64,000 nt of DNA from Ignavibacteria bacterium (lineage in GTDB: Bacteria > Bacteroidota > Ignavibacteria > Tepidaquicellales > OLB5): the NCBI GenBank assembly GCA_017303675.1, contig JAFLBX010000001.1:133970-197969 (forward strand), read 5' to 3'. The position numbers and the translations under genes were made by a program. Shown here piece after piece: positions 21,416 to 52,955 of this stretch (position 1 is the first letter of the stretch; the number at the start of each line of letters is the position of its first letter). The notes beneath the pieces were generated by a model. It saw only the letters and a program-made list of their open reading frames with translations, did not search any database and was not told where the DNA came from.

Positions 21416-21440
21416 TTTTTCAATTATCGAATATTTAATA

Positions 21441-21461
21441 GGGGCTTATAGCCCCTTTTTT
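21441..21461 (+). terminator. intrinsic terminator
   Basis: GGGGC-TTATA-GCCCC followed by T6. Confidence 0.6.
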
Positions 21462-21563
21462 ATTTCCTGATTTATCCCCTGCATTTACTATTAAATTGTT
21501 TTTACATTAAAAATATATTAAAATGGTATTATTAATTCAGCATTTAAATATATTAATATAATT

Positions 21564-23219
21564 ATGAACAAAATAATATTACTGTTTATAATTTCATCCA
21601 TCTGTATCCCGTTTAACATCTTATCACAGCAGCTAAGCCCTGAGCTTCCGCAAATAAAAAGCGAAAGCATATATTCTACAGGCACTGTTCAAAACCGCGT
21701 TGCATATGTTAATGCACCGCCCGGGGTCCAAAACACCACACTTCAAAATCCTGCACTAAATCCTATTAACGCATCTTCCATTCGCTGGATCACAAGTGAT
21801 CCTATCGCAATTGGTGACAGGTGTGCAACCAGCAGGAACGGGCTTTACCAGGTTACCGGGTGGGGGCTAAATACTGAAAGGGTATCGCTGTATAATAATT
21901 TATCCGCGGTTCCTTTGTGGGAATATCCCTCAAACCCGAATACATTTATCAATTATGTCGCTATATCTGATACCGGCGGTTACATTGCCAACGGCAGCTA
22001 TCACAATATATATATTTTTAACCGCGCAAGCAGCACACCCATTTTCAATTTTAACCTGGAAACACAATTACCGGATACAGGAATTGCAGGGCCGGTTGAA
22101 ATTACTTCGAACGGTGATTTTATAATAGCCACCGCTTCACGAAGCGATTCAAGCTGGATCTTCGGTTTCAACAGGAATTCAACCAATTGGGTATGGAGAT
22201 ACCGTGTTGGACAGACAAATAATACAGGCGGCGCAACTATACAGGGTGTTAAAATGTCCGGCAATGATTCACTTGTAATTGTAAATACATACCTTGGATT
22301 TTACGTGTTCAGAACATATACAGGACAGCTTGTTTATTCAGGTTCTGTGAATCCTTCATCAACAAGCGGAACGCAATTCCCCCAGGGAATCAGCGGTAAC
22401 GGTAATTATATCGCAACAATTAATTACAGCGGTATTATGAGAGTTTACCAGTGGAACGGGACAACCTATAATTTTGTGTGGCAGGTTGCTGAAAGCGGTT
22501 CATGGATCACAGCAGTTGATATAAGTTATGACGGCACAAAAATTGCATATGGCACTCTTGTGTTTGTAAGTGGCGGCGGATTTGACGGAAGAATTAAATA
22601 TTTTAACTCTTCCAACTCTACTCCTGTATGGACCTATCCAAATACAGGCGACCAGGTAACCAGTGTTTCCTTTTCAAGGAACGGAAAAGTTCTGGCTGTA
22701 TCAACATATGCAGATCTTGGAAATAATAACTACGATCTTCTTGTATTTAAAACCAGCGTTCCGGCAGCTGCGCCTATATTCGGTGTATCTTCAGCGGGTT
22801 CTTTTTTCTGGTGCAATACTTCAAATGACGGCAGTACAGTTATAGCAAGCGGAAAAGCTGTTCATGCGCGTACTTTTGGTAACGGCGGTGAAGCTTATAA
22901 CATATTTATTGATACCAATGATACACCCCTAGGCCTTGGGAATAACAATCTTCCGGCAACTTTCAGCCTGGAACAAAATTACCCAAACCCCTTCAACCCG
23001 GTTACTACAATTAATTATTCACTGCCTACCGGTGAATTTGTAAATATTACCATGTATGACCAGTTGGGCAGAGCTGTAAAAACTATAGTAAATGAAAACC
23101 GTCCCGCCGGCAGTTATTCTGTTCAGGTTGATGCCTCAGAGCTTCCCAGCGGTGTTTACTTTTACCGTATTCATGCAGGGATATTTTCTTCAGTCCGGAA
23201 ACTGGTTCTGATCAAATAA
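21564..23219 (+). CDS. T9SS-sorted WD40-like beta-propeller protein
   Basis: Signal peptide. Repeated blades of the type ISDTGGYIA, ITSNGDFI, ISGNGNYIA, ISYDGTKIA, FSRNGKVLA and SNDGSTVIA. Ends in an NYPNPFNP...GVYFYRI...LVLIK CTD. Confidence 0.8.
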   Translation: MNKIILLFIISSICIPFNILSQQLSPELPQIKSESIYSTGTVQNRVAYVNAPPGVQNTTLQNPALNPINASSIRWITSDPIAIGDRCATSRNGLYQVTGWGLNTERVSLYNNLSAVPLWEYPSNPNTFINYVAISDTGGYIANGSYHNIYIFNRASSTPIFNFNLETQLPDTGIAGPVEITSNGDFIIATASRSDSSWIFGFNRNSTNWVWRYRVGQTNNTGGATIQGVKMSGNDSLVIVNTYLGFYVFRTYTGQLVYSGSVNPSSTSGTQFPQGISGNGNYIATINYSGIMRVYQWNGTTYNFVWQVAESGSWITAVDISYDGTKIAYGTLVFVSGGGFDGRIKYFNSSNSTPVWTYPNTGDQVTSVSFSRNGKVLAVSTYADLGNNNYDLLVFKTSVPAAAPIFGVSSAGSFFWCNTSNDGSTVIASGKAVHARTFGNGGEAYNIFIDTNDTPLGLGNNNLPATFSLEQNYPNPFNPVTTINYSLPTGEFVNITMYDQLGRAVKTIVNENRPAGSYSVQVDASELPSGVYFYRIHAGIFSSVRKLVLIK

Positions 23220-28629: not shown

Positions 28630-30375
28630 ATGAAAACCCTCAAAAACTATCTTATTCTCTTATTGATAGCAGCATCAATAATCCAAACAACATTTTTGTT
28701 TTCGCAATCACTTGCCCCGGCTCAAAGCATTTTTATGCAAGGCAATAACATCAATGCAGTTTTCAGAACTGACGGTCTTTTTAATTATGATAAAGTTACT
28801 TTTTCCAGCGGTTCTGCAGGGTTTATCTGGCCGGTTACTTCGCCGCAAAGATTAACAGCGGTGTTTACATCGGGAATATGGATTGGCGCAAAAGTGGGTC
28901 CCCAGCGCGAGCTGAGACTTGCCGCATCATTCTATAACACTCATTATTCACCGGGCAATATTCCGCAAACAGGTCAGGTTCCTCCATCATCTGTCTGCAG
29001 CGATCCCTCCTGGCGCGGGTATTATGTCCAGCTAACTGACCCTTCACTATTTTCAGGTGGTACACGATATAAAACTGCCGGCGGAAGACAATATACATTC
29101 AATTACGATTCTTGGGCAAACTGGCCGGTACAGAAAGGCGCGCCGTATGTTGAAGTAAACGGCATACCCGGTTATCAACCTGCATGGGATGGCGACCGTC
29201 CCGGAATAGGAAACGGTATGACAGCAAGACCCGAAGAACTCTCATTTTTTGTATATATGGATTATTACAACTGCACGAATAATCTACACTATTCAGAATT
29301 ATCTCTACCCGGCGGAACATTACCGATGGGTGTTGAAATACAACAAATTAATTTCATGTTCAACTGCTTCCCGCTTCGGGATATGTACTTTGTAAAATAC
29401 AGGGTCATAAACAAATCTTCATTTAATTGGGATAGTACATTTATTACAAATGTAAATGATCCTGATTTAGGAGAATCAATAGATGATGCATTGGGTTGCG
29501 ATACCGTAAGAAATTTAGGATTTTATTATAATTTCGATAATGATGATCCCGTTTACGGCATGAATCCACCTGCTGTAGGAATGAGATATATTCAAAGCTC
29601 TGTCAGATCTACCGGTAATCAAAATGATACTTTAAGGTTACCTTACGATACATTAATCGGATTCAAACAGAATGGAATGACGGCTTTCAATCGTCTTTCG
29701 GGTGGATCAAATGAATGTTTATCGGATCCCGATAATGCTCATTTTGCTTTTAATTTTATGAGAGGTTTAAATGGATGCGGAGAACCATATATAAATTTTG
29801 TTACCGGGGCACCAACCAGCTTCAAATATAGTGGTAATTCATGTCAGCGAACCGGTTGGTTCGATAGTCTTTGGGGTGATTGCAGAGGATTCATGAGTAC
29901 GGGTCCTGTTACTATGAACTCAGGCGATACACAAATTGTAGTACTAAACTACATGATTACTCGCGATGGCGGCAATAATTTCCAGAACGTTTGCGCGCTG
30001 CAATCGCTGTCAGACTCAGCATTAAAGTACTACTACAACGATTTCCGCACTTGCATGCCCATTGGAATTGAACCGATAAGCACTGAAATTCCGCAAAAAT
30101 TTGAGCTGTTTCAAAATTACCCAAACCCGTTTAACCCGGCTACAAAAATAAGGTTTCATATTCCCCTCTCGAGAGGGGTGGCCGGCGAAGCCGGACGGGG
30201 TGTGTTGCTTAAAATATTTGACATCCTCGGCAAAGAAATTGCAGTGCTGGTTAATGAAAACCTCAAACACGGCATTTATGAAATTGACTGGAATGCTGAA
30301 AATATACCAAGCGGCGTATATTTTTACTCTTTAATAACAAATGAATTCACCCAAACAAAAAAATGGTGGTGTTGA
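28630..30375 (+). CDS. T9SS-sorted Cys-rich secreted protein, family A paralog 1 (altered C-terminus)
   Basis: 581 aa with a signal peptide. Paralog of the genes at 30377, 32095 and 37990. It has the NYPNPFNP...GVYFYSL CTD but ends KKWWC instead of KKMVVVK. Confidence 0.85.
   Translation: MKTLKNYLILLLIAASIIQTTFLFSQSLAPAQSIFMQGNNINAVFRTDGLFNYDKVTFSSGSAGFIWPVTSPQRLTAVFTSGIWIGAKVGPQRELRLAASFYNTHYSPGNIPQTGQVPPSSVCSDPSWRGYYVQLTDPSLFSGGTRYKTAGGRQYTFNYDSWANWPVQKGAPYVEVNGIPGYQPAWDGDRPGIGNGMTARPEELSFFVYMDYYNCTNNLHYSELSLPGGTLPMGVEIQQINFMFNCFPLRDMYFVKYRVINKSSFNWDSTFITNVNDPDLGESIDDALGCDTVRNLGFYYNFDNDDPVYGMNPPAVGMRYIQSSVRSTGNQNDTLRLPYDTLIGFKQNGMTAFNRLSGGSNECLSDPDNAHFAFNFMRGLNGCGEPYINFVTGAPTSFKYSGNSCQRTGWFDSLWGDCRGFMSTGPVTMNSGDTQIVVLNYMITRDGGNNFQNVCALQSLSDSALKYYYNDFRTCMPIGIEPISTEIPQKFELFQNYPNPFNPATKIRFHIPLSRGVAGEAGRGVLLKIFDILGKEIAVLVNENLKHGIYEIDWNAENIPSGVYFYSLITNEFTQTKKWWC
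30163..30194 (+). repeat. in-frame GC-rich double hairpin element, copy 1
   Basis: Perfect 16-bp palindrome CCCCTCTCGAGAGGGG (30163-30178), then CCGGC-GAA-GCCGG (30182-30194). It encodes PLSRGVAGEAG inside the CTD. Confidence 0.6.
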
Positions 30376-30376
30376 A

Positions 30377-32098
30377 ATGAAAAAAATATTAATGTTAATA
30401 CTGATTTTATCATTTAATATATATGCTCAGTCGCTAGCTCCGGTACAAAACATTTTTATGCAGGGCAATAATATAAACGCAGTTTTCAGAACTGACGGTT
30501 ATTTTAATTTTGATATAGTTAATTTTCTAAATGGAAGTGCTGGTTTGGTTTGGCCAAGTACATCTCCTGAAAGATTGACTGGAATTTTCACTTCAGGGTT
30601 ATTCATTGGAGCAAAAGTGGGACCGCAACGGGAGCTCAGGGTTTCTGCATCATTTTATAATACTCATTATTCACCCGGCAATATACCCGTAATTGGTCAG
30701 GTCCCGCCATCATCAGTTTGTAGTGATCCATCATGGCGCGGATATTATGTCCAGTTGACTGACCCTTCGTTAATTTCAGGAGGTACAAGATATAAAACTG
30801 CAGGAGGCAGGCAGTATACGTTTAATTATGATTCATGGGCAGCATGGCCTGTTCAGAAAGGTGCGCCATATGTTGAAGTCAATGGTATTCCCGGCTACCA
30901 GCCAGACTGGAATGGCGATAGACCCGGAATTGGCAATGGAATGACTGCAAGACCCGAAGAATTACTGTTTATGGTTTATATGGATTATACCAATTGCAGA
31001 GATACTATACACAGTTCAGTATTGGGTTTACCCGGTGGTACACTGCCTCTTGGGGCTGAAATACAGCAATTGGTTTACAATTTTAATTGTTTACCTTTAA
31101 GAGACATGTATTTTATTAGTTATAGAATTATAAATAAAAGTAATAGTCATTGGGATAGTTTATATATTTCTAATGTAAATGATGCTGATATTGGAAATTC
31201 AAATGATGATGCTACAGGCTGCGATTCAACAAGAAATCTTTCATTTACTTATAATTTTAATCAGACTGATCCCGAATACGGAAACAACCCGCCTGTTATA
31301 GGAATCAGGATGCTTCAGACACCTATTGTATTTACTGGTATAAACAGCGATACATTAAAACTACCTTATGATACATTAATTGGTTATATAACGACTGGGA
31401 TGTCAGGTTTTAACGGGATAATAGGTGGAGGGAGTGGTTGTACTGCCTATTTGGGACACGCAATTAATGCCTATAATTTCATGCGGGGAAAAGATGGCTG
31501 CGGAAATCCAATAATTAACTGGGTAACAAATAAAACCACAACATTCAGATGGAGTGGTAATGCTTGTTACAGATATGGTTGGTTTGACAGTACCGGTCAG
31601 GAAAAAAGAATGATTAGCAGTATGGGATCAGCTTCTTTGAACTCCGGTGATACACAAATTGTAGTTATGAGTTATATGATAACGCGTGACGGCGGCAATA
31701 ACTTCCAGAATGTATGCGCGCTGCAATCGTTATCTGATTCAGCACTAAAGTATTACTACAACGATTTTCGCACATGTGTGCCTATTGGAATTGAACCAAT
31801 AAGCTCAGAAATTCCCCAAAAATTTGAGCTTTTACAGAATTATCCGAACCCGTTTAACCCGGCTACAAAAATAAGGTTTCATATTCCCCTCTCGAGAGGG
31901 GTGTCCGAAGGACGGGGTGTGTTACTTAAAATTTACGATGTACTCGGCAAGGAAATTGCCGTACTGGTAAATGAAAACCTCAAACCCGGCATTTATGAAA
32001 TTGACTGGAATGCTGAGAACCTTCCTAGCGGCGTATACTTTTACTCTTTATTAACAAATGAATTTACCCAAACAAAAAAAATGGTGGTGGTAAAATGA
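30377..32098 (+). CDS. T9SS-sorted Cys-rich secreted protein, family A paralog 2
   Basis: ATG 30377 lies 1 nt after the upstream stop. Signal peptide MKKILMLILILSFNIYAQS. Full CTD ending KKMVVVK. Confidence 0.85.
   Translation: MKKILMLILILSFNIYAQSLAPVQNIFMQGNNINAVFRTDGYFNFDIVNFLNGSAGLVWPSTSPERLTGIFTSGLFIGAKVGPQRELRVSASFYNTHYSPGNIPVIGQVPPSSVCSDPSWRGYYVQLTDPSLISGGTRYKTAGGRQYTFNYDSWAAWPVQKGAPYVEVNGIPGYQPDWNGDRPGIGNGMTARPEELLFMVYMDYTNCRDTIHSSVLGLPGGTLPLGAEIQQLVYNFNCLPLRDMYFISYRIINKSNSHWDSLYISNVNDADIGNSNDDATGCDSTRNLSFTYNFNQTDPEYGNNPPVIGIRMLQTPIVFTGINSDTLKLPYDTLIGYITTGMSGFNGIIGGGSGCTAYLGHAINAYNFMRGKDGCGNPIINWVTNKTTTFRWSGNACYRYGWFDSTGQEKRMISSMGSASLNSGDTQIVVMSYMITRDGGNNFQNVCALQSLSDSALKYYYNDFRTCVPIGIEPISSEIPQKFELLQNYPNPFNPATKIRFHIPLSRGVSEGRGVLLKIYDVLGKEIAVLVNENLKPGIYEIDWNAENLPSGVYFYSLLTNEFTQTKKMVVVK
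31886..31913 (+). repeat. in-frame GC-rich double hairpin element, copy 2
   Basis: CCCCTCTCGAGAGGGG (31886-31901), then GTCC-GAA-GGAC (31903-31913). Confidence 0.6.
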
Positions 32099-33816
32099 AA
32101 ACAATATATCTGTTAATACTTTTTTTATCATATAATGTTTATTCTCAAGCTCTCGCCCCGGCGCAAAGCATTTTTATGCAGGGCAATAATATCAATGCAG
32201 TATTCAGAACTGACGGGTATTTTAATTATGATAAAGTAACATTTACATATGGTGCTGCGGGCTTTATATGGCCTGTAAATTCTCCTTCAAGGATGACTGC
32301 TGTGTTTACTTCCGGACTCTTCATTGGAGCAAAAGTGGGTCCGCAACGTGAGCTAAGGCTCTCTGCTTCAATGTTTAATTCACATTTTTCGCCGGGTAAT
32401 ATCCCTGTTATTGGACAGGTTCCCGGAACATCAGTTTGCAGCGATCCCTCATGGCGGGGGTATTACGTACAGCTAAGTGACCCTGCATTAATTAATGGAG
32501 GGACCAGATATAAATCAGCTGGCGGCAGACAGTATACTTTTAATTACGATTCATGGGCAAGCTGGCCTGTGCAAAAAGGAGCTCCATATGTAGAAGTCAA
32601 TGGAATTCCCGGCTACCAGCCTGACTGGAACGGCGACAGACCCGGTATTGGTAATGGAATGACAGCAAGACCTGAAGAACTATTGTTTATGGTATTTATG
32701 GATTATACCAATTGCAGAGATACTATACACAGTTCGGAACTTAGTTTACCCGGAGGTACAATGCCTTTAGGAGTAGAAATACATCAATTGGTTTATAATT
32801 TTAACTGCTTCCCGCTTAGAGATATGTATTTCATTAAATACAAGTTCATCAACAAAAGCTCACAGGTTTGGGATAGTACATGGATATCAAATATAAATGA
32901 TTTCGATTTGGGTAATTCAAATGATGATGCAACCGGATGCGATTCAACAAGAAATCTTTCATTCACTTATAATTTTGATAACAATGATCCCGAATACGGA
33001 ACTAACCCCCCTGTTGCAGGTACAAGATTCCTTCAATCTCCTTTAAGATATACAGGAAACAATTCTGATACAGCTAAACTGCCTTATGATACTTTAACCG
33101 GATATAAAATGACGGGGATGACAGGTTTTTTCAGGTTTATTGGCGGAGGTAATGAATGTTTTGGTGATCCTGATGAGGCTTTTAGAGCATATAATTTTAT
33201 GCGTGGAAAAGATGGCTGCGGCAATACGTTAATTAATTGGGTTACTAATCAGCCAACAACATATTTGTGCTCAGGAAATGCGTGTTTAAGAACCGGTTGG
33301 TTTGATAGTGTATCCGGGGATAAAAGAGGAATTTCGAATATGGGTCCGGTTACAATGCAGCCGGGTGATACACAAATTGTGGTATTAAGCTATATGATAA
33401 CCCGCGATGGCGGCAACAATTTCCAGAATGTTTGTGCTCTGCAATCGTTATCAGATTCAGCATTAAAGTACTACTACAACGATTTCCGAACATGTGTGCC
33501 GATTGGTATTGAACCGATAAGCGCAGAAATTCCACAAAAATTTGAGTTGGTACAGAATTATCCAAATCCGTTTAATCCGGTTACAAAAATAAGGTTTCAT
33601 ATTCCCCTCTCGAGAGGTGTGTCCGCAGGACGGGGTGTATTACTTAAAATTTACGATGTCCTTGGCAAAGAAATAGCCGTACTGGTTAACGAAAACCTCA
33701 AACCCGGCATTTACGAAATCGACTGGAACGCCGAAAACATACCAAGCGGCGTTTATTTTTACTCTTTAATAACAAATGAATTTACCCAAACAAAAAAGAT
33801 GGTGGTGGTAAAATGA
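32095..33816 (+). CDS. T9SS-sorted Cys-rich secreted protein, family A paralog 3
   Basis: ATGA overlap with the upstream gene, a signal peptide and the CTD. Confidence 0.85.
   Translation: MKTIYLLILFLSYNVYSQALAPAQSIFMQGNNINAVFRTDGYFNYDKVTFTYGAAGFIWPVNSPSRMTAVFTSGLFIGAKVGPQRELRLSASMFNSHFSPGNIPVIGQVPGTSVCSDPSWRGYYVQLSDPALINGGTRYKSAGGRQYTFNYDSWASWPVQKGAPYVEVNGIPGYQPDWNGDRPGIGNGMTARPEELLFMVFMDYTNCRDTIHSSELSLPGGTMPLGVEIHQLVYNFNCFPLRDMYFIKYKFINKSSQVWDSTWISNINDFDLGNSNDDATGCDSTRNLSFTYNFDNNDPEYGTNPPVAGTRFLQSPLRYTGNNSDTAKLPYDTLTGYKMTGMTGFFRFIGGGNECFGDPDEAFRAYNFMRGKDGCGNTLINWVTNQPTTYLCSGNACLRTGWFDSVSGDKRGISNMGPVTMQPGDTQIVVLSYMITRDGGNNFQNVCALQSLSDSALKYYYNDFRTCVPIGIEPISAEIPQKFELVQNYPNPFNPVTKIRFHIPLSRGVSAGRGVLLKIYDVLGKEIAVLVNENLKPGIYEIDWNAENIPSGVYFYSLITNEFTQTKKMVVVK
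33604..33631 (+). repeat. in-frame GC-rich double hairpin element, copy 3 (first stem degenerate)
   Basis: CCCCTCTCGAGAGGTG (palindromic core CCTCTCGAGAGG), then GTCC-GCA-GGAC (33621-33631). Confidence 0.5.
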
Positions 33817-35897
33817 AAAAGTTAATTTTTTTGATACTGCTATGCCCTTCTTCAATTCTTCTTTCCCAGGGAGGGTGGGAACTGGTTTACTCAGGTAATA
33901 TTTCATCTTACCCGGTTTACAGGGATATTAATTTTATAAATGAAACTACAGGTTTCACATTAACTAATTTTGGCTTACTGAAAACTACGAACTCATCTCA
34001 TAGCTGGAACCAGGTTATAATTCCGGGATTAACAGGAGAGATCAGCTGTTATTATATTCTAAATGAAAATAATATATGGGTCTTAACAGATCATAAAGTT
34101 AACTATACTTCAAACGGAGGTATAAACTGGAATACCATTGATACAACAATTTCAGAGCCCATGTCAATCAGCTTCATAAATGCTCTAAGCGGCTGGGTTT
34201 GCGGAAACGGCGGAATGATCAAAAAAACTACTAATGGCGGCTTTAACTGGATAAGCTGCATATCAGGAACTAATGATAATCTCAGAACGATATCATTCCA
34301 AAATGCCAATAACGGGGTTTGCGCGGGCGACTGGGGAAAAATTCTTTCAACAATAAACGGCGGGTTAAACTGGATAGTTTTTACGGATCCTTACCAGGGT
34401 TTTTTTAAAAATTCGCTCTTCTACTCACAAAATTTTTATATTAGCGGCTCAGGAGTCAATATCTACAGAAGCTCTAATAACGGAAATAACTGGAGCCTTT
34501 CATATCTTAATGCTTCGGTTATTTCCAGCATCAGATTCAATTCACAGGGAAGAGGTTTTGCTTTTGGCTCACCAAATGATATTTTTTCATCAATTAATAA
34601 CGGGCTATCGTGGGAACGGATGAGTCCAAACGGGTTAAACCCTGCAGTTTATGGCTCATCTGTTACCCCAAACGGAACTATATGGATAGCTGCTGACAGC
34701 AGCATGATATTAAATTCAACTAATTCCGGCGCAGGCTGGAATGAGATCATCCGGAATTATATAACCGGGGAAAATTTAAATGCTGTTTATTTTACTGACC
34801 AATTCTCAGGTATAGCATGCGGGAATAAAGGAGTACTTATTAAATCTACTAATGGCGGAGTGAACTGGAAACATACCGGTTTAAATGAAACAGGAAATCT
34901 AAGGTCAGTAAAATTTACTGATAATAACACGGGTTTTATCTGCGGCGGTAACGGTTCAACTGAGGGAGTAATTTACCGAACAACGGATTTTGGGACATCC
35001 TGGGTAAATCAATTCAGGGATTCTTCCCACTTGAACAGTATTTTTTTTATCAATTCTCAAACAGGCTGGGCAGCCGGTGTAAAAGGTATATTTTTAAAAA
35101 CCACAAATAGCGGTATAATCTGGGTAAGAGAGCGTTTTCAAGATACTACTATAAATAATATTTCTTTCTTAAATAATAATACAGGTTTTATTTGCAGCAG
35201 GAAAATATATAAAACCACTAACTCAGGAACAAACTGGTACCAGGTTTTGAATAATCCATCATATCAAATACAGGTTACAGGCAATACCATTTATGCGCTA
35301 AGCAAATCCTTAAACGTGAATTATATAAATAAAAGCACTGATTTTGGTGAATCCTGGAGCAGTACTTCGCAGGGAAGCGGTTCAAATTTCAGCTTTTACT
35401 TTGTTAACTCTGAGACAGGATGGTTTAGTAACAGTTCAGCAGTCAGAAGGACTACAAATGGCGGAGCAAACTGGAGCATACAGCCCGGCACAGGGATTTC
35501 AGTATTAACTATCTTTTTTACAGATCCTTTGCATGGTTGGGTTGCCGGTAATTCCGGTTCAATCGCAAGAACCATAACAGGGGGAATAGGTATAACACAA
35601 ATATCATCTGATGTACCAATGGATTACCAATTGCAGCAAAACTATCCAAATCCTTTCAATCCCGCTACAAAAATAAGATTCAATATTCCTGCATTTGCAG
35701 AGATAACCCGGCGGATCGTCTCCCTGAAAATTTACGATATACTTGGCAAAGAAATTGCCGTACTTGTAAACGAAAATCTCAAACCCGGCATTTATGAAGT
35801 TGAGTGGAATGTACAAAATATTCCAAGTGGTGTGTATTTTTACTCTTTAATAACCAATGAATTTACCCAAACAAAAAAGATGGTAGTGGTAAAATGA
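33813..35897 (+). CDS. T9SS-sorted BNR/Ycf48-like beta-propeller repeat protein, family B paralog 1
   Basis: 694 aa with a signal peptide. It has many (K/R)(T/S)TNGGxNW repeats. The last ~58 aa of the CTD are nearly identical to the family A tail. ATGA overlaps occur at both ends. Confidence 0.85.
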   Translation: MKKLIFLILLCPSSILLSQGGWELVYSGNISSYPVYRDINFINETTGFTLTNFGLLKTTNSSHSWNQVIIPGLTGEISCYYILNENNIWVLTDHKVNYTSNGGINWNTIDTTISEPMSISFINALSGWVCGNGGMIKKTTNGGFNWISCISGTNDNLRTISFQNANNGVCAGDWGKILSTINGGLNWIVFTDPYQGFFKNSLFYSQNFYISGSGVNIYRSSNNGNNWSLSYLNASVISSIRFNSQGRGFAFGSPNDIFSSINNGLSWERMSPNGLNPAVYGSSVTPNGTIWIAADSSMILNSTNSGAGWNEIIRNYITGENLNAVYFTDQFSGIACGNKGVLIKSTNGGVNWKHTGLNETGNLRSVKFTDNNTGFICGGNGSTEGVIYRTTDFGTSWVNQFRDSSHLNSIFFINSQTGWAAGVKGIFLKTTNSGIIWVRERFQDTTINNISFLNNNTGFICSRKIYKTTNSGTNWYQVLNNPSYQIQVTGNTIYALSKSLNVNYINKSTDFGESWSSTSQGSGSNFSFYFVNSETGWFSNSSAVRRTTNGGANWSIQPGTGISVLTIFFTDPLHGWVAGNSGSIARTITGGIGITQISSDVPMDYQLQQNYPNPFNPATKIRFNIPAFAEITRRIVSLKIYDILGKEIAVLVNENLKPGIYEVEWNVQNIPSGVYFYSLITNEFTQTKKMVVVK

Positions 35898-37993
35898 AAA
35901 AAATAATACTGTTTATTTTTATAATTCTTATCTTCAAACTGGATTCATTTGGCGGCTGGGAAGTAATTTATCCCGGTTTGAATATTTACGGATCATATTA
36001 TAAGGATATAGCGTTTTTCAATGATCAGACCGGATGGCTGTTAACACAATCAGATGTAAGAAAAACCACAAACGGCGCTCAGACCTGGATAAAGTATGAC
36101 CTTTCAAGGGGCTATTACACATCAATGACCTGCGCCCAGTTTCTCAATAAAGATACAGGCTGGGTATTAGTCGGCAAATTCCTGAACTTTACAACAAATA
36201 GCGGAGCAAACTGGACGATAATGGATTCTTCTACTTCTAATATCAAAAGTATGCATTTTCTTGATATCAATAACGGCTGGGCATGTGGCAGCAGCGGTTC
36301 AGTTTATAAAACCACAAATGGAGGAAAAAACTGGTTAAGTATAAATACGGGCACATCAAACAATTTAAATGCTGTTTCATTTGCAGATAATAACTTTGGA
36401 GTTTGCGGGGGTGATTGGGGCACTATTATATGGACAACAAATGGTGGATTGAATTGGAATAATTTTACAGATAGTTATATTAATTTCTTTACAAATGTAA
36501 AATGTTTCAATAACCAAACCTGCATCGTTACAGGTACAGGAAGCATTTTATACCGGACAACCAATCGCGGAGCATCATGGCAGCCTCATTTTACAAATTT
36601 ATTAATACAGAATACTATTGAGCTTGATCCAGCAAACAACGGTTATATTTTCGGTTCTCCGAATTCTTTTATAAGAACGGCAAATTCAGGAAGTACGTGG
36701 GAAACGATTACTTCCGTGAGCTTGTTTTCCCGGTTATATTCAGCTTCAATCACACCATCAAATACATTCTGGTGTGCAGCAGATAGCGGTATTATATTCA
36801 GATCATCCACTAACGGTAACAATTGGGATATAGCTTACAGGGAATACATTACCCAGGAAAATTTAAAATCAGTATACTTTGTAAATCAGTCAACTGGTTT
36901 AGCAGCTGGTACACACGGAATAATGCTTCGAACAACCAATGGCGGAATCAACTGGAACAGTCAGTTCCTTGGTACAGATAAAACATTTAATTCAATTCAG
37001 TTCGTTAATTCAGAAACAGGATATGCAGCAGGGGGTGAAAGCTATAGCTTTGGTATAGTTTATAAAACTACAAATTCCGGCATCAGCTGGCAGCAGGTTT
37101 ACCGTGATTCACTGCAGTTGGTTTCAGTACATTTTATAAATCCATCAACAGGATGGAGCGCAGCCAACAGCAGGGCAATAATTAAAACCACGGATGCAGG
37201 AAATAACTGGAGTAAATCCATTATAACAACAACTCAACCCCTAAATAATATTTATGATATTTTTTTTATTAATGAAAACACCGGGTTTATAGGAAGTACC
37301 GGAATGTATAAAACAACTGACGGTGGTATAAACTGGTACAGGGTACTTGTTTATATTACACAATCCATCCAGTTTATTGGGAATAGCGGTTTTGCAATTA
37401 CTAATGCAGCAGGAAATTTCATGAAATCAACAAACACCGGCGAAAACTGGGTGTCATATCCAACCGGAGGAAGTTACAGAGGAGACGTATTTTTCATTAA
37501 TACTGAAACAGGCTGGGTTAATACACCGAATATTATCCGTAAGACTACTAATGGAGGTATTAACTGGGCTGTACAAAACACTGACTTAAACTCAATTTCT
37601 GCCAACGCATTATTTTTTATTAATGAAAATATTGGCTGGGCTGCAGGCAATTATGGCGGTATAATGCGAACAACTAACGGCGGCATAGGAATTTCAACTA
37701 TTTCAACGGAAATTCCCAGGCAGTTCAATTTGTACCAGAATTATCCTAACCCATTTAATCCGGTAACAAAGATAAGATTCAGTATTCCCTCTACTCTGGA
37801 GAACCGGCAATCAGTCTCGCTGAAAATATACGACATTCTCGGCAAAAAAATCGTCGTGCTGGTAAACGAAAATCTGCTACCCGGAACTTATGAAACTGAA
37901 TGGAATGCCTCAAATTATTCAAGCGGTATATATTTTTACAGTCTAATAACTGATAACTTCACCCAAACCAGAAAGATGGTATTAATAAAATGA
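35894..37993 (+). CDS. T9SS-sorted BNR/Ycf48-like beta-propeller repeat protein, family B paralog 2
   Basis: 699 aa with the same repeat architecture (KTTNGGKNW, RTTNGGINW...). The CTD ends RKMVLIK. Confidence 0.85.
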   Translation: MKKIILFIFIILIFKLDSFGGWEVIYPGLNIYGSYYKDIAFFNDQTGWLLTQSDVRKTTNGAQTWIKYDLSRGYYTSMTCAQFLNKDTGWVLVGKFLNFTTNSGANWTIMDSSTSNIKSMHFLDINNGWACGSSGSVYKTTNGGKNWLSINTGTSNNLNAVSFADNNFGVCGGDWGTIIWTTNGGLNWNNFTDSYINFFTNVKCFNNQTCIVTGTGSILYRTTNRGASWQPHFTNLLIQNTIELDPANNGYIFGSPNSFIRTANSGSTWETITSVSLFSRLYSASITPSNTFWCAADSGIIFRSSTNGNNWDIAYREYITQENLKSVYFVNQSTGLAAGTHGIMLRTTNGGINWNSQFLGTDKTFNSIQFVNSETGYAAGGESYSFGIVYKTTNSGISWQQVYRDSLQLVSVHFINPSTGWSAANSRAIIKTTDAGNNWSKSIITTTQPLNNIYDIFFINENTGFIGSTGMYKTTDGGINWYRVLVYITQSIQFIGNSGFAITNAAGNFMKSTNTGENWVSYPTGGSYRGDVFFINTETGWVNTPNIIRKTTNGGINWAVQNTDLNSISANALFFINENIGWAAGNYGGIMRTTNGGIGISTISTEIPRQFNLYQNYPNPFNPVTKIRFSIPSTLENRQSVSLKIYDILGKKIVVLVNENLLPGTYETEWNASNYSSGIYFYSLITDNFTQTRKMVLIK

Positions 37994-39711
37994 AAACTTT
38001 AATATTATTTATTGCTCTTAGCTATTCTGTTTATGGACAGTCACTCGCTCCGGCGCAAAGCATATTTATGCAGGGCAATAATATTAACTCTGTTTTCAGA
38101 ACAGATGGCTATTTTAACTACGATAAAGTAACTTTCCTGAATGGAAACGGAGGTTTTTTATGGCCTGTAACTTCACCTATACGAATGAGTGCTATTTTTA
38201 CAACGGGTATCTGGATCGGCACAAAAGCGGGTCCGCAGCGTGAACTAAGGCTTGCGGCATCTACATATAATTCCCATTATTCACCCGGTAATATTCCCGT
38301 AATTGGTCAAGTACCGCCGTCATCAGTTTGCACAGATCCTTCCTGGCGGGGATATTATGTACATTTAAATGATCCTGCTCTTTTTAACGGCGGCACGAGA
38401 TATAAGATGGCAGGAGGGAGACAATATACCTTCAATTATGATTCCTGGGCAAGCTGGCCCGTGCAGAAAGGTGCGCCATATGTTGAAGTAAACGGTATAC
38501 CCGGTTACCAGCCTGCATGGAATGGGGACAGACCTGGTATCGGTAACGGTATGTCAGCAAGACCTGAAGAAATATTATTTATGGTATTTATGGATTATAC
38601 TAACTGCACTGATTCCATTCACACAAGCGAAATGAGTTTACCCGGGGGTTCAAAACCATTAGGAGTAGAAATTCAACAAATAGTTTTCAATTTCAATTGT
38701 TTCCCATTGCGTGATATGTATTTTGTAAAATACAGAATAATAAATAAAAGTTCATTGGTTTGGGATAGTACCTATATAGGTATTTGCAGTGATACCGATC
38801 TGGGCGATGCCGGTGATGATGTAACCGGATGTGATACAACAAGAAATATGGGATTTGTATATAATTATGATAATAATGACCCGATTTACGGAACAAATCC
38901 TCCAGCAGTTGGTATTAGGCTGCTGCAAAGTCCTTTGCGTTTTACAGGTTCAAACTCTGATACTGTAAAACTGCCTTATGATACTCTAATAGGTTATAAA
39001 TCAATTGGTATGAGTTCGCATATGTCATTTAAAAATAACGGGCCTTGCTATTCAGATCCATCTGATGCTGTAACCGCATACAATCTTTTATCCGGTTTTA
39101 ATGGATGTGGTGAACAATTGATAAATTGGGTAACAGGTCAGCCAACAAAATTCCTATACAGCGGAAATGCCTGTCAGCGCACAGGCTGGTACGATAGTAA
39201 TTCCCAGGATGTAAAAAATTTTATCGGCTCAGGCCCGTATATTATGAATTCCGGTGATACACAAATTGTAATGACAAGTTTTATGATCACACATGAAGGA
39301 GGCAATAATCTGCAGAATGTTTGTGCATTACAGACTCTTTCCGATACTGCTCTGTCAAACTATTACAGGGATTTTTCTAATTGTATTCCCATAGGTATCG
39401 AACCAATAAGCAGTGAAATCCCTCAAAAATTTGAGCTGGCACAGAATTATCCAAATCCGTTTAATCCTGTTACAAAATTTCGATTCTCCATTCCCCTCTC
39501 AAGAGGTGTGGACGGCATAGCCGGACGGGGTGTGTTGCTTAAAATTTACGATGTACTTGGCAAGGAAATTTCCGTTCTGGTAAACGAGCAGCTCAAGCCC
39601 GGCATTTATGAAATTGACTGGAACGCTGAGAACATACCAAGCGGCGTATATTTTTATTCACTCATAACAAATGAATTTACCCAAACAAAAAAAATGGTGG
39701 TGGTAAAATAG
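37990..39711 (+). CDS. T9SS-sorted Cys-rich secreted protein, family A paralog 4
   Basis: 573 aa and the most diverged A copy. The CTD ends KKMVVVK-TAG. This is the last gene of the array. Confidence 0.85.
   Translation: MKTLILFIALSYSVYGQSLAPAQSIFMQGNNINSVFRTDGYFNYDKVTFLNGNGGFLWPVTSPIRMSAIFTTGIWIGTKAGPQRELRLAASTYNSHYSPGNIPVIGQVPPSSVCTDPSWRGYYVHLNDPALFNGGTRYKMAGGRQYTFNYDSWASWPVQKGAPYVEVNGIPGYQPAWNGDRPGIGNGMSARPEEILFMVFMDYTNCTDSIHTSEMSLPGGSKPLGVEIQQIVFNFNCFPLRDMYFVKYRIINKSSLVWDSTYIGICSDTDLGDAGDDVTGCDTTRNMGFVYNYDNNDPIYGTNPPAVGIRLLQSPLRFTGSNSDTVKLPYDTLIGYKSIGMSSHMSFKNNGPCYSDPSDAVTAYNLLSGFNGCGEQLINWVTGQPTKFLYSGNACQRTGWYDSNSQDVKNFIGSGPYIMNSGDTQIVMTSFMITHEGGNNLQNVCALQTLSDTALSNYYRDFSNCIPIGIEPISSEIPQKFELAQNYPNPFNPVTKFRFSIPLSRGVDGIAGRGVLLKIYDVLGKEISVLVNEQLKPGIYEIDWNAENIPSGVYFYSLITNEFTQTKKMVVVK
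39493..39523 (+). repeat. in-frame GC-rich double hairpin element, copy 4 (first stem degenerate)
   Basis: CCCCTCTCAAGAGGTG, then CGGC-ATA-GCCG (39513-39523). Confidence 0.45.
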
Positions 39712-42371: not shown

Positions 42372-43304
42372 TTACTTGGTTGGTTTAGGCGGAATAAAAT
42401 CTGATCGTTTTTTCATCAGCTGTGATGCTAATGCAGCAAATAATTTAAACAGCTGGTTATTTCCGCTTACCTGAGTTATATATGAAGCAACAGCATTCGG
42501 ATCAGTCTGTGCTTCTTTATATAAATTTATCACTGTTGGCTGGCCTGCCCCGTTAATAGTAACTGTGTAAGTTGGCACCGGGAATGTTGTCATGACAGTA
42601 TCTTTAAAATCATCAGTGTTAAAGTTTGCCAGCAGATTTAAAAACCCTTCCATAACAGAAGAAGATACTGAATCACCAGCGATACTCCACTTACCAGCTG
42701 AATCCTTTGCAACCGTAAAATCTACTTTATTTGAATCAGAGGATTTAAATGAGACTGAGTTTACTGTAAACGGCTGGATTGACAAGATAAATTTATTCCT
42801 GTAATCTTTTGATGGCTTTGTAAACAAAGCGGATGTTAATTCAGAAGCCAGTAAGATCCTGTTCTCTTCCGGTTTTTTGATATAGGAATTATTTGTAGAT
42901 TGTGTTTTACCCAGTATAAAAGTACCCAGCAGCTTTCCTTCCTGGTATGTTGAGATCAGGGAATTATTCACTGAATCCAGATAGCTGTTGAATTTAGCCG
43001 GATTTTCCGAGGCAATACTTTCAATTGTAAAATTTTTCAGATCTTTTAAAAGCAAATATACATTTGTAGTATCAGCAGGATAGTTTATTGGCTTAGTCAG
43101 CTGCCACTGGTTGTTAATTTTTTCCAGTACCACAGTCTCACCTGTTTTTACAATTTCAATTTTATCAATTTTGGATGAATCTGCTACAAACAGCTTCGCA
43201 TCGATTTTTTCAGTTGATACTTTTTCGCCGGTTCTGAAGAACAGGAAATATAATGCAATAAGTACCGCGAAAACTGCAAGTAATATTTTAATTGTTTTAT
43301 TCAT
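42372..43304 (-). CDS. DUF4340-like protein (last gene of GldG-type ABC operon)
   Basis: 310 aa with an N-terminal TM anchor and a beta-rich remainder. Its position directly after a GldG-like gene matches the usual DUF4340 synteny. The family name is from memory. Confidence 0.5.
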   Translation of the reverse strand: MNKTIKILLAVFAVLIALYFLFFRTGEKVSTEKIDAKLFVADSSKIDKIEIVKTGETVVLEKINNQWQLTKPINYPADTTNVYLLLKDLKNFTIESIASENPAKFNSYLDSVNNSLISTYQEGKLLGTFILGKTQSTNNSYIKKPEENRILLASELTSALFTKPSKDYRNKFILSIQPFTVNSVSFKSSDSNKVDFTVAKDSAGKWSIAGDSVSSSVMEGFLNLLANFNTDDFKDTVMTTFPVPTYTVTINGAGQPTVINLYKEAQTDPNAVASYITQVSGNNQLFKLFAALASQLMKKRSDFIPPKPTK

Positions 43305-43356: not shown

Positions 43357-45084
43357 TCAGTTTTTAGCTGCTTTTTTTCTTCTCCATTTAAACAAACCGT
43401 ATAACAGAACAAGTACCGGCGGTCCGGCAAGCATTCCGTATTTTACAATGGTTTTCGTACTGTCTTCAATGGAATCAAGCGGTTTGGGATTTGAATCTTT
43501 CATTCTGATAGCAGAAAGTCCTGCATCATCACTCATATAGTCTATCATATTTGCAAAGAAAAGAAGGCTTTCATCAGGTCCGCGGAAATCATCCTGGGGA
43601 AAATCGCCGTTGCCAAGAACTATAATTTTTGATGCCGGGCTTTCGGGTTTTACACTCGTTTGAGGCGCATTTGAACCTGCAGCAGTATCTGCCGGGATCG
43701 GCTTTCCGTTATAAAAGCTTTTAAATACACCTTCATATATTGCTCCAACATTCAGATCTTTTGCTTTGAACATTGTATCAGGCAGCATTTGCCCTGAAGC
43801 CTGAACAATAGCAAATTCATTTGAAACACCGGTTTTTGGAGATGTAGTTAACAGTGGAAGAGCTTTTATACCTTTACTTCCAGCTGCATTAATATCAATA
43901 TCACTTGTAAATCCTAAAAATACCTGACCTATATTTGCGAAAGAAGGAATATCACGGTTTATGTTCACGATTTTCGGATAATACGGGAATGGTATTTGTG
44001 TATACATCTGAATTGGGCCCTGCTGAACAGGAACCTGGACAAATGCGCATTCTTTATCAGTGATAATTGTATTGTTCAGTTTTACGCCATAATTATCAAG
44101 CATATCTTCAAGACCGGTCTGAACAACTTGAGCGATCTGGAACTGCTGTTGTGATGCAACATTAACACGGCTCATCATGAACATTACTTTGCCGCCATTC
44201 ATAATATACTGATCTATAGCAAACTTGATATTTTCAGGAATGACCGGAGGAGGAGCCTGCTGCTGACCCATCATTTGCTGCTGCTGAGGAGCTTTCGGTG
44301 AAAACACTACCAATGTCTTTATATCAGCAGGTATAGGATTATTTTTGGAAGCATCTACATTTGTAACATTATAGAATTTGGATAAATATTGATTAACCTT
44401 GCTTATCTTTTCTACACCTGGCATACCATCACCTGATAGAATACCGATCTTTTTAAGCTCAGGTTGTGTCAGCCTGTTAATAACGCCTGTTATTTCATAC
44501 TCAAGGTTATCTGTGCTGCCAATGAAGGGAATAGCTTCCTGCTTTCCGCCATATAGTAAAACAACACCCATATAAGCTTTTAGCGCTTCTGCCCTGTCAT
44601 TTTTCACGGTCTGCACCTGTACCGGCTGAATACCGTATTTCTGAGCTTCTTTTTCCAGCTCATCCTGGTCACTTGGACTGATGATCTCGTATGTAATTTT
44701 TCCGTTGGCGGCATTGCGGTAATCATCCAGCAATTCCTGCAGGTACCTGCGGTTATTGTTATACGGAGCAGGTAAATTATCCGTGAAGTAAGCTTTTACA
44801 ACAAGCTTATCATCAAGCTTAGATACAATTGATTTACTTGCATCAGAAAGCGTATAAATTTTATTCGGAGTCAGATCCCAGCGGAAAAATACCTGTACTG
44901 CTATTACATTCAGCACTACAAGAATACCTGCTACCAGTAAAACGCTTAATATTGCCTGGCGGCGTTTTGATTCGGTCTTCTTTTTTCTGCCGGTTAACCG
45001 TTCATCCTGTTCAATCTCTTCGGATGATTCTTCGGTAACTTCCTCTTCTTTTAATTCGTCTTTATTTTCTAATTCTTCAGCCAT
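43357..45084 (-). CDS. GldG-like ABC transporter accessory protein
   Basis: 575 aa. An acidic N-terminus is followed by a TM, a large periplasmic domain with a poly-Q linker and a C-terminal TM. The gene follows the ABC-2 permease and ATPase genes. Confidence 0.7.
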   Translation of the reverse strand: MAEELENKDELKEEEVTEESSEEIEQDERLTGRKKKTESKRRQAILSVLLVAGILVVLNVIAVQVFFRWDLTPNKIYTLSDASKSIVSKLDDKLVVKAYFTDNLPAPYNNNRRYLQELLDDYRNAANGKITYEIISPSDQDELEKEAQKYGIQPVQVQTVKNDRAEALKAYMGVVLLYGGKQEAIPFIGSTDNLEYEITGVINRLTQPELKKIGILSGDGMPGVEKISKVNQYLSKFYNVTNVDASKNNPIPADIKTLVVFSPKAPQQQQMMGQQQAPPPVIPENIKFAIDQYIMNGGKVMFMMSRVNVASQQQFQIAQVVQTGLEDMLDNYGVKLNNTIITDKECAFVQVPVQQGPIQMYTQIPFPYYPKIVNINRDIPSFANIGQVFLGFTSDIDINAAGSKGIKALPLLTTSPKTGVSNEFAIVQASGQMLPDTMFKAKDLNVGAIYEGVFKSFYNGKPIPADTAAGSNAPQTSVKPESPASKIIVLGNGDFPQDDFRGPDESLLFFANMIDYMSDDAGLSAIRMKDSNPKPLDSIEDSTKTIVKYGMLAGPPVLVLLYGLFKWRRKKAAKN

Positions 45085-49134: not shown

Positions 49135-49259
49135 AACAAGGTGAAATATATTACTAAAACTTAACAAAATAATGGTGTGTTTTCAATACCATAATCCAAA
49201 ATTATTATTTTCAGTAAATTATATGTTATAATTTCAAATATCTCATTATCTTGCTTTAA

Positions 49260-50066
49260 ATGCAGGAAACAATAGACAAAACCGGGCATATCTGCCAAAA
49301 CTGCGGAGCTGAATTATCTGGCAAATTTTGCTCTAATTGCGGCCAGGATAGTTCGCTGGCTTTTAATCGCTCAATTTTTTACATAATTATTCATTTTCTC
49401 GAAGAATTGTTTGTCTGGGATTCCAGGATATTCCGTTCGGTGAAATATTTATTCACGAAGCCCGGATTCTTAACCTATGAATATATCTCCGGAAAGATCA
49501 ATAGTTATATTTCTCCGCTTAAAATGTTTCTCTTTACCAGTTTAGTACTCTTCTTTATTATGATACAAAGTGATCCTGATCATTACAAATCAATGATATC
49601 TGAATCTGAAGAAGATGATTATTTTGTATCATTTGTAATTGAACAGCAGAAAAACAGCAGCAGTACTCCTGAAGTTTTTAAAGATAATTTTAACGATCAG
49701 TTCAACGATAATATTACTTTATATTTACTGTTAACAATGCTTATATTTTCACTTCTGCTTAAGCTGTTATATTTTACAAGAAAATATTATTACAGCGAGC
49801 ATTTAGTGTTTACCCTTCATTTTTTCACTTTTGTGCTATGGTGTCTGCTTGCAGGCGGATATTTAGAACGTTTTGTTGATGAACTGTTATTCTTTTTCCT
49901 ATATTTTGTTCCGGGTATATATTTATTCTTTTCGGTTAAACGGGTCTATCATAAATCCTTTTGGGGAGCTTTTCTTGTTGCAGGTTTCATGACCGTTTCA
50001 TACGGCATACTTATTTCTATATGGATCTTAGGTTCTGTAATGTTGAGCGCTTACCGCGCAGCATAA
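49260..50066 (+). CDS. DUF3667-like zinc-ribbon membrane protein
   Basis: N-terminal CQNCGAELSGKFCSNCGQ zinc ribbon followed by several TM helices. Confidence 0.6.
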   Translation: MQETIDKTGHICQNCGAELSGKFCSNCGQDSSLAFNRSIFYIIIHFLEELFVWDSRIFRSVKYLFTKPGFLTYEYISGKINSYISPLKMFLFTSLVLFFIMIQSDPDHYKSMISESEEDDYFVSFVIEQQKNSSSTPEVFKDNFNDQFNDNITLYLLLTMLIFSLLLKLLYFTRKYYYSEHLVFTLHFFTFVLWCLLAGGYLERFVDELLFFFLYFVPGIYLFFSVKRVYHKSFWGAFLVAGFMTVSYGILISIWILGSVMLSAYRAA

Positions 50067-50071
50067 AAAAA

Positions 50072-50092: not shown

Positions 50093-50118
50093 TTTATAAA
50101 AAATATTATAATTTAAGT

Positions 50119-52926: not shown

Positions 52927-52955
52927 TTATGCAAAAATTATTATTAGTGAAAATT

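Follow-up and report, generated by a model that had tools for sequence, protein, structure and literature searches.

Evidence for concerted, reticulate evolution of a secretion sorting domain carried by non-homologous cargo in an Ignavibacteria gene array

Results

Six tandem genes end in type IX secretion sorting domains

The window analyzed here is a stretch of 64,000 nt from an Ignavibacteria bacterium (assembly GCA_017303675.1, contig JAFLBX010000001.1, positions 133,970–197,969 of the forward strand). Six co-directional open reading frames (ORFs) span positions 28630–39711 of the window and form a tandem array, in the order A1, A2, A3, B1, B2, and A4 (Table 1). Each encodes a cargo followed by a C-terminal domain (CTD). 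The last 174 nt of B1 were flagged in an earlier reading of the sequence (the original prediction) as a module common to B1 and the A genes and grafted onto non-homologous cargo; the six ORFs, their ATGA overlaps, and the B1 peptide quoted in that reading all proved correctly placed.

The two cargo classes have little in common. A1–A4 are 71%–81% identical in protein sequence, and their cargo is a Cys-rich, uncharacterized domain of ∼485 amino acids for which sequence searches of Pfam, NCBIfam, and the PDB returned no match. The cargo of the B genes consists of Ycf48/BNR-like β-propellers (PF14870), and B1 and B2 are only 45% identical. N termini of the MKK-plus-hydrophobic kind, read by eye as putative signal peptides, are visible in the array translations; the true start of A2, judged from the sequence, is likely the ATG at 30377 (MKKILML...). 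The internal junctions of the array are ATGA stop/start overlaps, that between B1 and B2 lying at 35894–35897. The same overlap is found at 43 of 53 junctions in related arrays, the exceptions being array-terminal genes, and through it the tightly packed array is probably translationally coupled.

The flagged 174 nt cover the 3′ two-thirds of a type A CTD of the type IX secretion system (T9SS). PF18962 (cut-off 27 bits) scores 29–45 bits for A1, A3, B1, B2, and A4, and TIGR04183 (cut-off 23 bits) scores 39–41 bits, with the matches reaching the last residues in both cases. An AlphaFold2 (AF2) model of the A3 CTD (predicted local distance difference test score 87.7) has seven strands in an Ig-like β-sandwich. 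Foldseek ranked PorZ (5m11) second and the mirolase CTD (8qb1) third among PDB matches, with E values of only about 3e-3. The window encodes ten further T9SS CTDs, which were used as in-genome background.

The tail of B1 resembles those of the A genes

An unbiased repeat search recovered a six-copy family of 187-nt direct repeats at 30193, 31910, 33628, 35709, 37805, and 39523 (spacings 1717, 1718, 2081, 2096, and 1718 nt), that is, at the ends of all six genes; the original prediction had counted five direct repeats in this array. Over the last 58 codons and the stop codon, the B1 tail is 81%–86% identical in nucleotide sequence to those of A2, A3, and A4 and 82%–83% identical to that of A1, whereas the A tails are 87%–90% identical to each other. 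The B2 tail is more diverged, as had been noted (77% to B1, 69%–73% to A). The array tails are only 50%–64% identical to the ten other CTDs in the window, with values of 52%–64% for the B1 tail, so that B1 is clearly closer to the A tails than to the CTD background.

Codon usage points the same way. At identical residues, the same codon is used at a fraction of 0.60–0.72 of positions between B1 and A tails and of 0.68–0.77 among A tails, against a baseline of 0.41–0.50 in B cargo and unrelated CTDs; the similarity of the tails therefore exceeds that expected from amino acid constraint alone. The description of the tails as almost the same at the DNA level was nevertheless too strong, since synonymous divergence (dS) is 0.76–1.4 between B1 and A tails (0.5–1.0 among A tails). 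The cargo of B1 and B2 is saturated (45% amino acid identity, proportion of synonymous differences [pS] 0.75) while their tails are not: the tail of B1 lies at pS 0.49 from that of B2 and at 0.48 from those of A2 and A3. Outgroup CTDs are no further from B2 than from B1, so no acceleration of B2 is apparent. As for the poly-A tract and the stop/start overlap, both counted as parts of the module, only the ATGA overlap is array specific; the CTDs of this genome all share the poly-A tract and KKMVxxK end as generic features.

The shared segment extends to the head of the CTD

A scan of species-representative genomes yielded 46 related loci, nearly all in Ignavibacteria metagenome-assembled genomes (MAGs). 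Where needed, genes are labeled W_ for the window array and L### for other loci, L008 being UBA2360. Position 35724, previously taken for a recombination breakpoint, instead marks where a hypervariable loop ends on its 3′ side; the palindromic insert in this loop is not the same in B1 as in the window A genes. The apparent step there has its source in this difference: B1 has an AFAE-type loop, and the loops of A1–A4 are all of the LSRGV type. Comparison with A-cargo genes of sister genomes that themselves have AFAE loops, among them L002_A11593 and L003_A1470, reveals unbroken identity of 80%–92% from the NYPNPFNP head of the B1 CTD through the loop and tail. Identity to both genes rises from ∼40% to 80% or more at the start of the head, ∼260 nt before the stop codon (∼35637). 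Both sit directly upstream of a B2 ortholog, and the gene downstream of the B1 CTD is collinear with L002 and L003 at 65%–80%.

Because collinearity is unbroken from ∼35637, the exchanged unit would be the complete CTD, and the junction would fall where cargo and CTD meet. The last 90 nt of the B1 tail are closer to A tails (p-distance 0.180) than to B-type tails (0.316; bootstrap 1.0), whereas its 5′ 84 nt are if anything nearer B-type (0.158) than A (0.185) and are not A specific. Of the 174-nt tail that the original prediction assigned as a whole to the A module, only the last 75–100 nt are thus specifically A-type rather than B-type, and homogenization of the 3′ end appears to be superimposed on exchange of the whole CTD. 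Lower codon sharing in the head (0.35–0.53) than in the tail (0.60–0.72) had hinted at a breakpoint within the CTD, but the difference, from only 15–17 sites, is not significant; it was set aside in favor of the cross-genome collinearity, which supersedes it.

Tails are mosaic and discordant with cargo

When W_B1 is compared with a B-type tail and W_A3, the maximum χ2 test is significant (p = 0.0005) and puts a breakpoint ∼75 nt before the stop codon, the last ∼75 nt being uniformly A-like. Four other triplets containing B genes give p = 0.005–0.024, with breakpoints 32–139 nt before the stop. The breakpoints in L008_B8366, L017_B668, and L010_B2 differ from that in W_B1; those inferred in different genes fall 139, 75, 63, and 32 nt before the stop. 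Under the four-gamete test, 64% of informative site pairs are incompatible, and a permutation test like the pairwise homoplasy index gives p = 0.008. Each of the four possible pairings of loop type with 3′-tail type is represented among the CTDs, and tails of A and B genes are more alike within genomes than between them, by 3.7 points of identity (permutation p = 0.006). Considered together with the discordance described below, the mosaicism supports the proposal of gene conversion or recombination between genes with non-homologous cargo.

At least ten MAGs have mixed A/B arrays at one common chromosomal site, and these arrays differ in order and copy number: AAABBA in the window, and AAABAA, ABABAAA, ABABA, AABAB, and ABBAA elsewhere, in agreement with the expansion, contraction, and reshuffling predicted from the direct repeats. 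The B cargo divides into orthogroups α (W_B1 and L008_B8366, 68% identical), β (W_B2 and six others), γ, and δ, and the A cargo likewise splits into orthogroups. Tail relationships repeatedly contradict these groups rather than mirroring the phylogeny of the cargo. The clearest case is W_B2 (β) and L008_B4561 (δ), with cargo 42% identical and tails 90% identical; identity jumps from ∼45% to 80%–98% at 172–190 nt before the stop, and the similarity runs on into an orthologous, collinear A gene downstream. The 3′ tails of this pair (37820–37993 in the window; L008:6514–6687) have 24 of 27 synonymous codons in common (pS 0.17). In MAG BA6, two B genes of different orthogroups have A-like tails 89% identical to each other. 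W_A4 and L008_A10450 belong to different cargo orthogroups and have the same 3′ flank, a common array terminus. Loops behave similarly: orthologous A cargo can carry different loops (e.g., W_A1 and L003_A1, 87% identical in amino acid sequence), while the paralogs of one genome share them.

The tail of the B1 ortholog in UBA2360 (L008_B8366) is likewise A-type. Between the window and UBA2360, the cargo of orthologous genes is nearly saturated at synonymous sites (pS 0.62–0.74), and yet the 3′ tail of L008_B8366 lies at pS 0.05–0.11 from the A tails of its own genome, the closest being that of L008_A10450 (pS 0.05, 24 of 25 codons identical). At the level of codon comparison, this indicates probable recent conversion of the B1 ortholog tail in UBA2360. 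The best matches of the B1 tail itself are L003_A5302 (87%) and W_A3 (86%); a database look-up found no record of the exact B1 protein.

Unrelated palindromes occupy one loop of the CTD

In an alignment of all array CTDs, the hypervariable loop lies between the TKIRFxIP and LKIYD strands, and the AF2 model places the insert in its least confident, predicted surface-exposed turn (residues 32–40). The canonical loop has six residues (KSGFTK); extended types include AFAETTRRVVS, LSRGV..GRGVL, PLNLPLSGGDKLGVS, SVGQRHAFDTK, and others. These types cut across cargo class, with AFAE on most B and many A genes and SVGQ on both A and B genes of one MAG. Canonical loops lack a palindrome, whereas extended loops have perfect stems of 7–14 bp with 55%–76% GC; the window A inserts have 66%–76% GC, against 38% for the window. 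Across Ignavibacteria arrays, no fewer than five unrelated palindrome families are found in this one loop; in the window and in ∼517 kb of related Ignavibacteria DNA, such palindromes are confined to array CTD loops. A GTAG tag marks the AFVE, SVGQ, and VGNG loop families (GTAGAGACG..., GTAGGTCAAAGG..., and GTAGGGAATGG...). The B1 copy reads GCAGAGATAACC..., with tag and stem both decayed, and the insert CCCCTCTCGAGAGGGG of the window A genes is without the tag. Extragenic relatives of the LSRGV palindrome (CCCCTCTCC-loop-GGAGAGGGG...GGGGTGAGG) are found on other Ignavibacteria contigs.

Relative to shuffled sequences, intact AFAE, PLNL, and SVGQ inserts fold far better (z = −2.9, −2.6, and −6.4), the B1 and B2 loops score −1.4 and +0.1, and LSRGV-type inserts fold no better than shuffles (z = −0.3 to −0.8). 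We considered and rejected a selected RNA structure: across 21 AFAE-type copies, 89% of base pairs are preserved, a value equal to that of shuffles, with a single double change, and the stems decay. No Rfam family matched the loop. Local fold-back, that is, inverted duplication of neighboring codons, was dropped as an origin of the AFAE type, the same 29-nt palindrome being present on many unrelated contigs; it is a possible origin of the other palindromes.

The AFAE/AFVE insert has extragenic relatives in metagenomes

The AFAE/AFVE insert is identical at 26 of 29 nt to GTAGAGACGACCCGNCGGGTCGTCTCTAC. A metagenome scan for GAGACGACCCNNCGGGTCGTCTC returned at least 120 contigs with a GC content of 35%–71%. 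Among the matches listed, 117 of 125 sites lie outside CTDs, with this 29-nt GTAG...CTAC palindrome as consensus; long ORFs are underrepresented at these sites (median covering ORF 116 versus 319 amino acids), and several contigs of one assembly carry the palindrome. On contig Ga0247727_10010022 (L121), an ORF at 7959–8824 resembling a Y1 transposase of the REP-associated tyrosine transposase (RAYT) kind, REP standing for repetitive extragenic palindrome, is flanked by GAGACGACCCGGTGGGTCGTCTC palindromes. It matches a Pfam-confirmed Y1_Tnp ORF of L052 (phmmer E = 4.5e-10) and holds an in-frame copy of the palindrome encoding ETTHRVVST, the same peptide as in CTD loops. No RAYT was found in the window or the Ignavibacteria loci, and a literature search for the palindrome string gave chance primer matches only.

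Some further features of these matches merit mention. The palindrome GTAGAGACGACCCGNCGGGTCGTCTCTAC is exactly conserved on contigs of 35% to 71% GC (L047–L166), presumably from very different phyla; REP families are usually lineage specific, so this spread is odd. In assembly ERZ1066124 it is nested in a longer palindrome, GCGTTTACCCGAYGAC...GTCRTCGGGTAAACGC, and in L076 it directly follows the apparent end of a clustered regularly interspaced short palindromic repeat (CRISPR). Related GTAGAGACGTTCC...GGAACGTCTC repeats cluster beside the RAYT-like ORF of L121.

Like REPs and the Rickettsia palindromic elements (RPEs), the loop inserts are short GC-rich palindromes, and intragenic REPs and in-frame RPEs are already documented. 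They differ in that at least five unrelated families are found in one loop of one protein domain, and in that the many-copy, mainly extragenic dispersal of REPs is not seen in the sampled Ignavibacteria DNA, where they occupy CTD loops only; such dispersal is seen elsewhere in metagenomes. The GTAG...CTAC palindrome and its occurrence beside and within the RAYT-like ORF agree with the published account of GTAG/CGTC-tagged REPs, which are found inside genes on occasion (Di Nocera et al., 2013, PMC3733652). In this lineage, the loop palindromes have apparently spread by recombination of CTDs rather than by transposition.

Discussion

We favor, with a probability of roughly three in four, a model in which the CTDs undergo concerted, reticulate evolution by ordinary homologous recombination within an array-specific lineage. 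The six CTDs would constitute one such lineage, in which conserved CTD DNA (the head motif, the central LKIYD...PGIYE, and the terminal GVYFY...KKMVVxK-ATGA) would serve as portable homology. A chimeric CTD, with its 3′ part and downstream neighbor drawn from another cassette, would result from unequal crossing-over between tandem CTDs. Such events would duplicate, delete, and reorder cargo cassettes and place unrelated cargo upstream of a resident CTD, while gene conversion would homogenize CTD segments of neighboring genes, above all the 3′ end, in 3′-anchored tracts. B1 would then be an α-orthogroup propeller fused to a complete CTD with an AFAE loop and an A-type 3′ end, and in sister genomes, CTDs of that kind are carried by the A-cargo genes that directly precede the B2 ortholog. 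Unequal crossing-over fits the three cases of collinearity described above: the B2 tail with A4, the B1 CTD with B2, and the shared array terminus.

Several observations weigh against this model or limit its reach. With tracts of only 58 codons and sequences that are not independent, the p values are approximate, and the comparison genomes are MAGs, many with arrays on short contigs. The B1 tail is as close to the A tails of other genomes as to those of its own, and its 3′ part is at pS 0.51–0.79 from the latter, from which the A-type state of B1 would be old. As far as synonymous sites can tell, there is no evidence of recent or ongoing conversion in this window: within-genome similarity exceeds ortholog similarity for the loops and for L008_B8366, and does not for B1 of the window. 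When orthologs of different genomes are compared, moreover, their tails have the same codon at 0.72–0.80 of identical residues versus 0.47–0.57 for cargo. This conservation weakens arguments from synonymous sites, and part of the tail similarity must come from constraint on the nucleotide sequence or from exchange between lineages. An active cassette system in this genome is likewise at odds with the age of the event (pS ∼0.5–0.8) and with the lack of an adjacent recombinase.

In an alternative history, a CTD was fused once to the ancestor of the B class and all else followed by vertical descent, the constrained domain evolving slowly and the B2 tail faster. The high dS between B1 and A tails would be expected under such descent, as would the unusual conservation of tails across genomes and the near-equal synonymous distances of B1 to B2 and to A2/A3; the A-type tail of the UBA2360 ortholog places that state before the split of the two lineages. 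We nevertheless regard this history as unlikely. It does not explain why B1-B2 cargo is saturated and the tails are not, the acceleration it calls for in B2 is not apparent against outgroup CTDs, and it is hard to reconcile with four loop/3′-tail combinations, with 64% of informative site pairs being incompatible, and with different loops on orthologous cargo. Nor would it leave the 3′ tail of L008_B8366 at pS 0.05 from A tails of its own genome when orthologous genes are near saturation. A history with no recombination at all, with convergence or purifying selection imposed by the T9SS machinery and the last ∼20 nt doubly constrained as coding sequence and as a possible ribosome-binding site (GGTGGTGG) for the next gene, is very improbable and largely refuted by the codon-level and loop-level data. 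The ten other CTDs of this genome serve the same machinery and yet are only 50%–64% identical to the array tails, with baseline codon sharing. B2-type tails lack the GGTGG run and are still followed by ATGA, unconstrained loops are common to both cargo classes, and the cargo classes are non-homologous, so that sharing of the CTD requires at least one recombination event. That the C-terminal end of T9SS CTDs is functionally critical, by virtue of established motifs, that ATGA coupling is conserved, and that synonymous conservation of tails is raised even between genomes are nonetheless points in favor of constraint.

The palindromes raise the question of cause. If the REP-like loop hairpins provoked exchange, through replication stalling or cleavage followed by repair from a neighboring CTD, tracts should start at the loop. 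Two similarity steps do coincide with its 3′ edge (W_B1 with the window A genes, and W_B2 with L008_B4561 at 172–190 nt before the stop), and strong GC-rich palindromes of these families occur nowhere but in array CTD loops in the ∼517 kb surveyed. REPs are, in general, known recombination join-points. The test breakpoints, however, lie away from the loop, B1 shows no step there against the sister-genome A genes, the AFAE stem lacks covariation and decays by mutation, and CTDs with palindrome-free six-residue loops (KSGFTK type, e.g., L005_A13803) also have a homogenized A-type 3′ tail. We therefore hold a causal role of the hairpins to be quite doubtful; because palindrome-free CTDs are homogenized too, hairpin-stimulated recombination is possible but unneeded. 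It is also unlikely that the CTD loop is a preferred landing or retention site for REP hairpins that, with the tail and ATGA, forms a built-in recombination module for cassette swapping. If this were true, Ignavibacteria would have recruited mobile palindromes within a protein-coding domain to diversify their secreted-protein repertoire, with cassettes being swapped, duplicated, and deleted behind one shared secretion tag. Programmed switching of cassettes, akin to shufflons, diversity-generating retroelements, or antigenic variation, and chimeric metagenome assembly at the repeats seem least credible of all. The flanking genes are housekeeping genes, none a recombinase or reverse transcriptase; the six cassettes are all full-length ORFs with putative signal peptides, none of them silent; and the copies are 70%–90% identical rather than identical, with old divergence. 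The combination of α-orthogroup cargo and A-type tail recurs in the independent UBA2360 assembly, and the B1 CTD and next gene are collinear with two further MAGs. Tandem direct repeats are, to be sure, present, and assemblers evidently struggle at such arrays: many related MAG contigs break inside them, and the organism's only other contig with the flanking YceG gene (3.9 kb) breaks at the start of A1.

The favored process, recombination among array CTDs, is ordinary concerted evolution, a known kind of process in a new setting and with an unusual REP-in-loop feature. The closest parallel is the concerted evolution and domain rearrangement of the T9SS cargo genes rgpA, kgp, and hagA of Porphyromonas gingivalis (Dashper et al., 2017, PMC5266723). 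There, as here, CTD-bearing T9SS cargo genes swap modules by homologous recombination or gene conversion and have strain-variable, combinatorial architectures. The two differ in that adhesin domains of dispersed, related genes are shuffled in P. gingivalis, whereas here it is the CTD and its sub-segments, between non-homologous cargo, in genes of uncultured Ignavibacteria that form one tandem array with ATGA overlaps as junctions. Tandem gene families likewise have direct repeats (here 1.7–2.1 kb apart), variable copy number and order, mosaics, and within-genome homogenization. In contrast to those families, homology here is limited to a ∼260-nt domain of otherwise unrelated genes, such that recombination would swap whole cargo cassettes beyond homogenizing paralogs. 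What is unusual is that exchange between non-homologous cargo involves the secretion tag itself, and that several palindrome families reside in one loop of this tag and, within the lineage, are confined there.

T9SS cargo repertoires are large and little understood outside Bacteroidota. With a secretion tag of ∼260 nt as portable homology, unrelated cargo could be exchanged, multiplied, and lost as cassettes at one conserved site. The same homology would explain the fragmentation of MAG assemblies at such arrays, and phylogenies based on CTDs can mislead. The surface loop of the sorting domain tolerates 5–16 extra residues of essentially arbitrary sequence, which may be useful for engineering CTD tags. 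The inserts also add to the few cases of REP-type elements within coding sequence, here in a lineage that otherwise seems to lack such elements.

Array features and chromosomal neighborhood

The features of the array are collected in Table 1. A1 differs from its paralogs at the 3′ end. Its poly-A tract is A7 (30357–30363), against A8 or A6G in the paralogs, which shifts the frame: where the conserved ending is KKMVVLK, the A1 protein has KKWWC, and A1 no longer overlaps A2 through ATGA (30373–30380). Orthologs of A1 in other MAGs are all intact at this end. The A7 tract could be a homopolymer sequencing error, a pseudogenizing mutation, or slipped-strand variation.

Table 1. Coordinates of the array genes, CTD segments, and loop inserts in the window
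Feature	Position	Strand	Description
A1	28630-30375	+	A-class cargo (without Pfam family) and CTD; PF18962 match; end frameshifted
A2	30377-32098	+	A-class cargo and CTD; from ORF list
A3	32095-33816	+	A-class cargo and CTD; TIGR04183 41 bits
B1	33813-35897	+	Ycf48/BNR-like β-propeller, orthogroup B-α, and CTD; PF14870 and PF18962 matches
B2	35894-37993	+	Ycf48/BNR-like propeller, orthogroup B-β, and B-type CTD
A4	37990-39711	+	A-class cargo and CTD; array-terminal; stop codon TAG, without ATGA overlap
B1 CTD head (QNYPNPFNPATKIRFNIP)	35637-35689	+	Repeat family D10; left edge of segment common with sister-genome A CTDs
Flagged module	35724-35897	+	57 codons (LKIYD...KKMVVVK) and stop codon; overlaps B2 start
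A-type-specific part of B1 tail (last 75-100 nt)	35805-35897	+	From maximum χ2 test and bootstrapped distances
B1 loop AFAEITRRIVS	35691-35723	+	Decayed copy (35700-35722, 3 mismatches) of GTAG-tagged palindrome GAGACGACCCGGCGGGTCGTCTC
A1 loop insert LSRGVAGEAGRGVL	30163-30203	+	Palindrome CCCCTCTCGAGAGGGG and hairpin CCGGC-GAA-GCCGG; GC 76%
A2 loop insert LSRGVSEGRGVL	31886-31920	+	Palindrome CCCCTCTCGAGAGGGG and hairpin GTCC-GAA-GGAC
A3 loop insert LSRGVSAGRGVL	33604-33638	+	Palindrome with 1 mismatch
A4 loop insert LSRGVDGIAGRGVL	39493-39533	+	Palindrome with 2 mismatches
B2 loop STLENRQSVS	37789-37818	+	Extended; no recognizable palindrome

Among A1–A3, nucleotide identity climbs to 83%–94% from about aligned codon 430 onward (29900–30115, 31620–31838, and 33340–33556), well upstream of the CTD; the cargo before this point is 55%–80% identical. 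Codon sharing in the region is marginally raised (0.58–0.65), and the rise may reflect protein conservation rather than conversion.

The genes flanking the array encode housekeeping functions (a tetratricopeptide repeat [TPR] membrane protein, YceG, a spermidine-synthase-like protein, a DUF4340 protein, and a GldG-like protein), and no recombinase or reverse transcriptase domain was found in the six flanking genes. The GldG-like protein (ABC_transp_aux and DUF7088; 43357–45084) and the DUF4340 protein (42372–43304) lie just downstream on the minus strand and are of kinds linked to gliding-motility ABC transporters. Upstream, at 21158–23219, are two more CTD proteins, one with an unusual extended end (...ARTESGNILKDTKKLTLVK). 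This pair is syntenic in at least eight related MAGs, and the variable array therefore sits in a conserved chromosomal neighborhood (CTD pair, TPR protein, YceG, membrane protein, array). In a second cluster on the minus strand, at 46990–59738, eight genes each end in a T9SS sorting domain whose loop is of the short canonical kind. Identity among these domains is only 47%–66%, with no sign of the homogenization seen in the A/B array.

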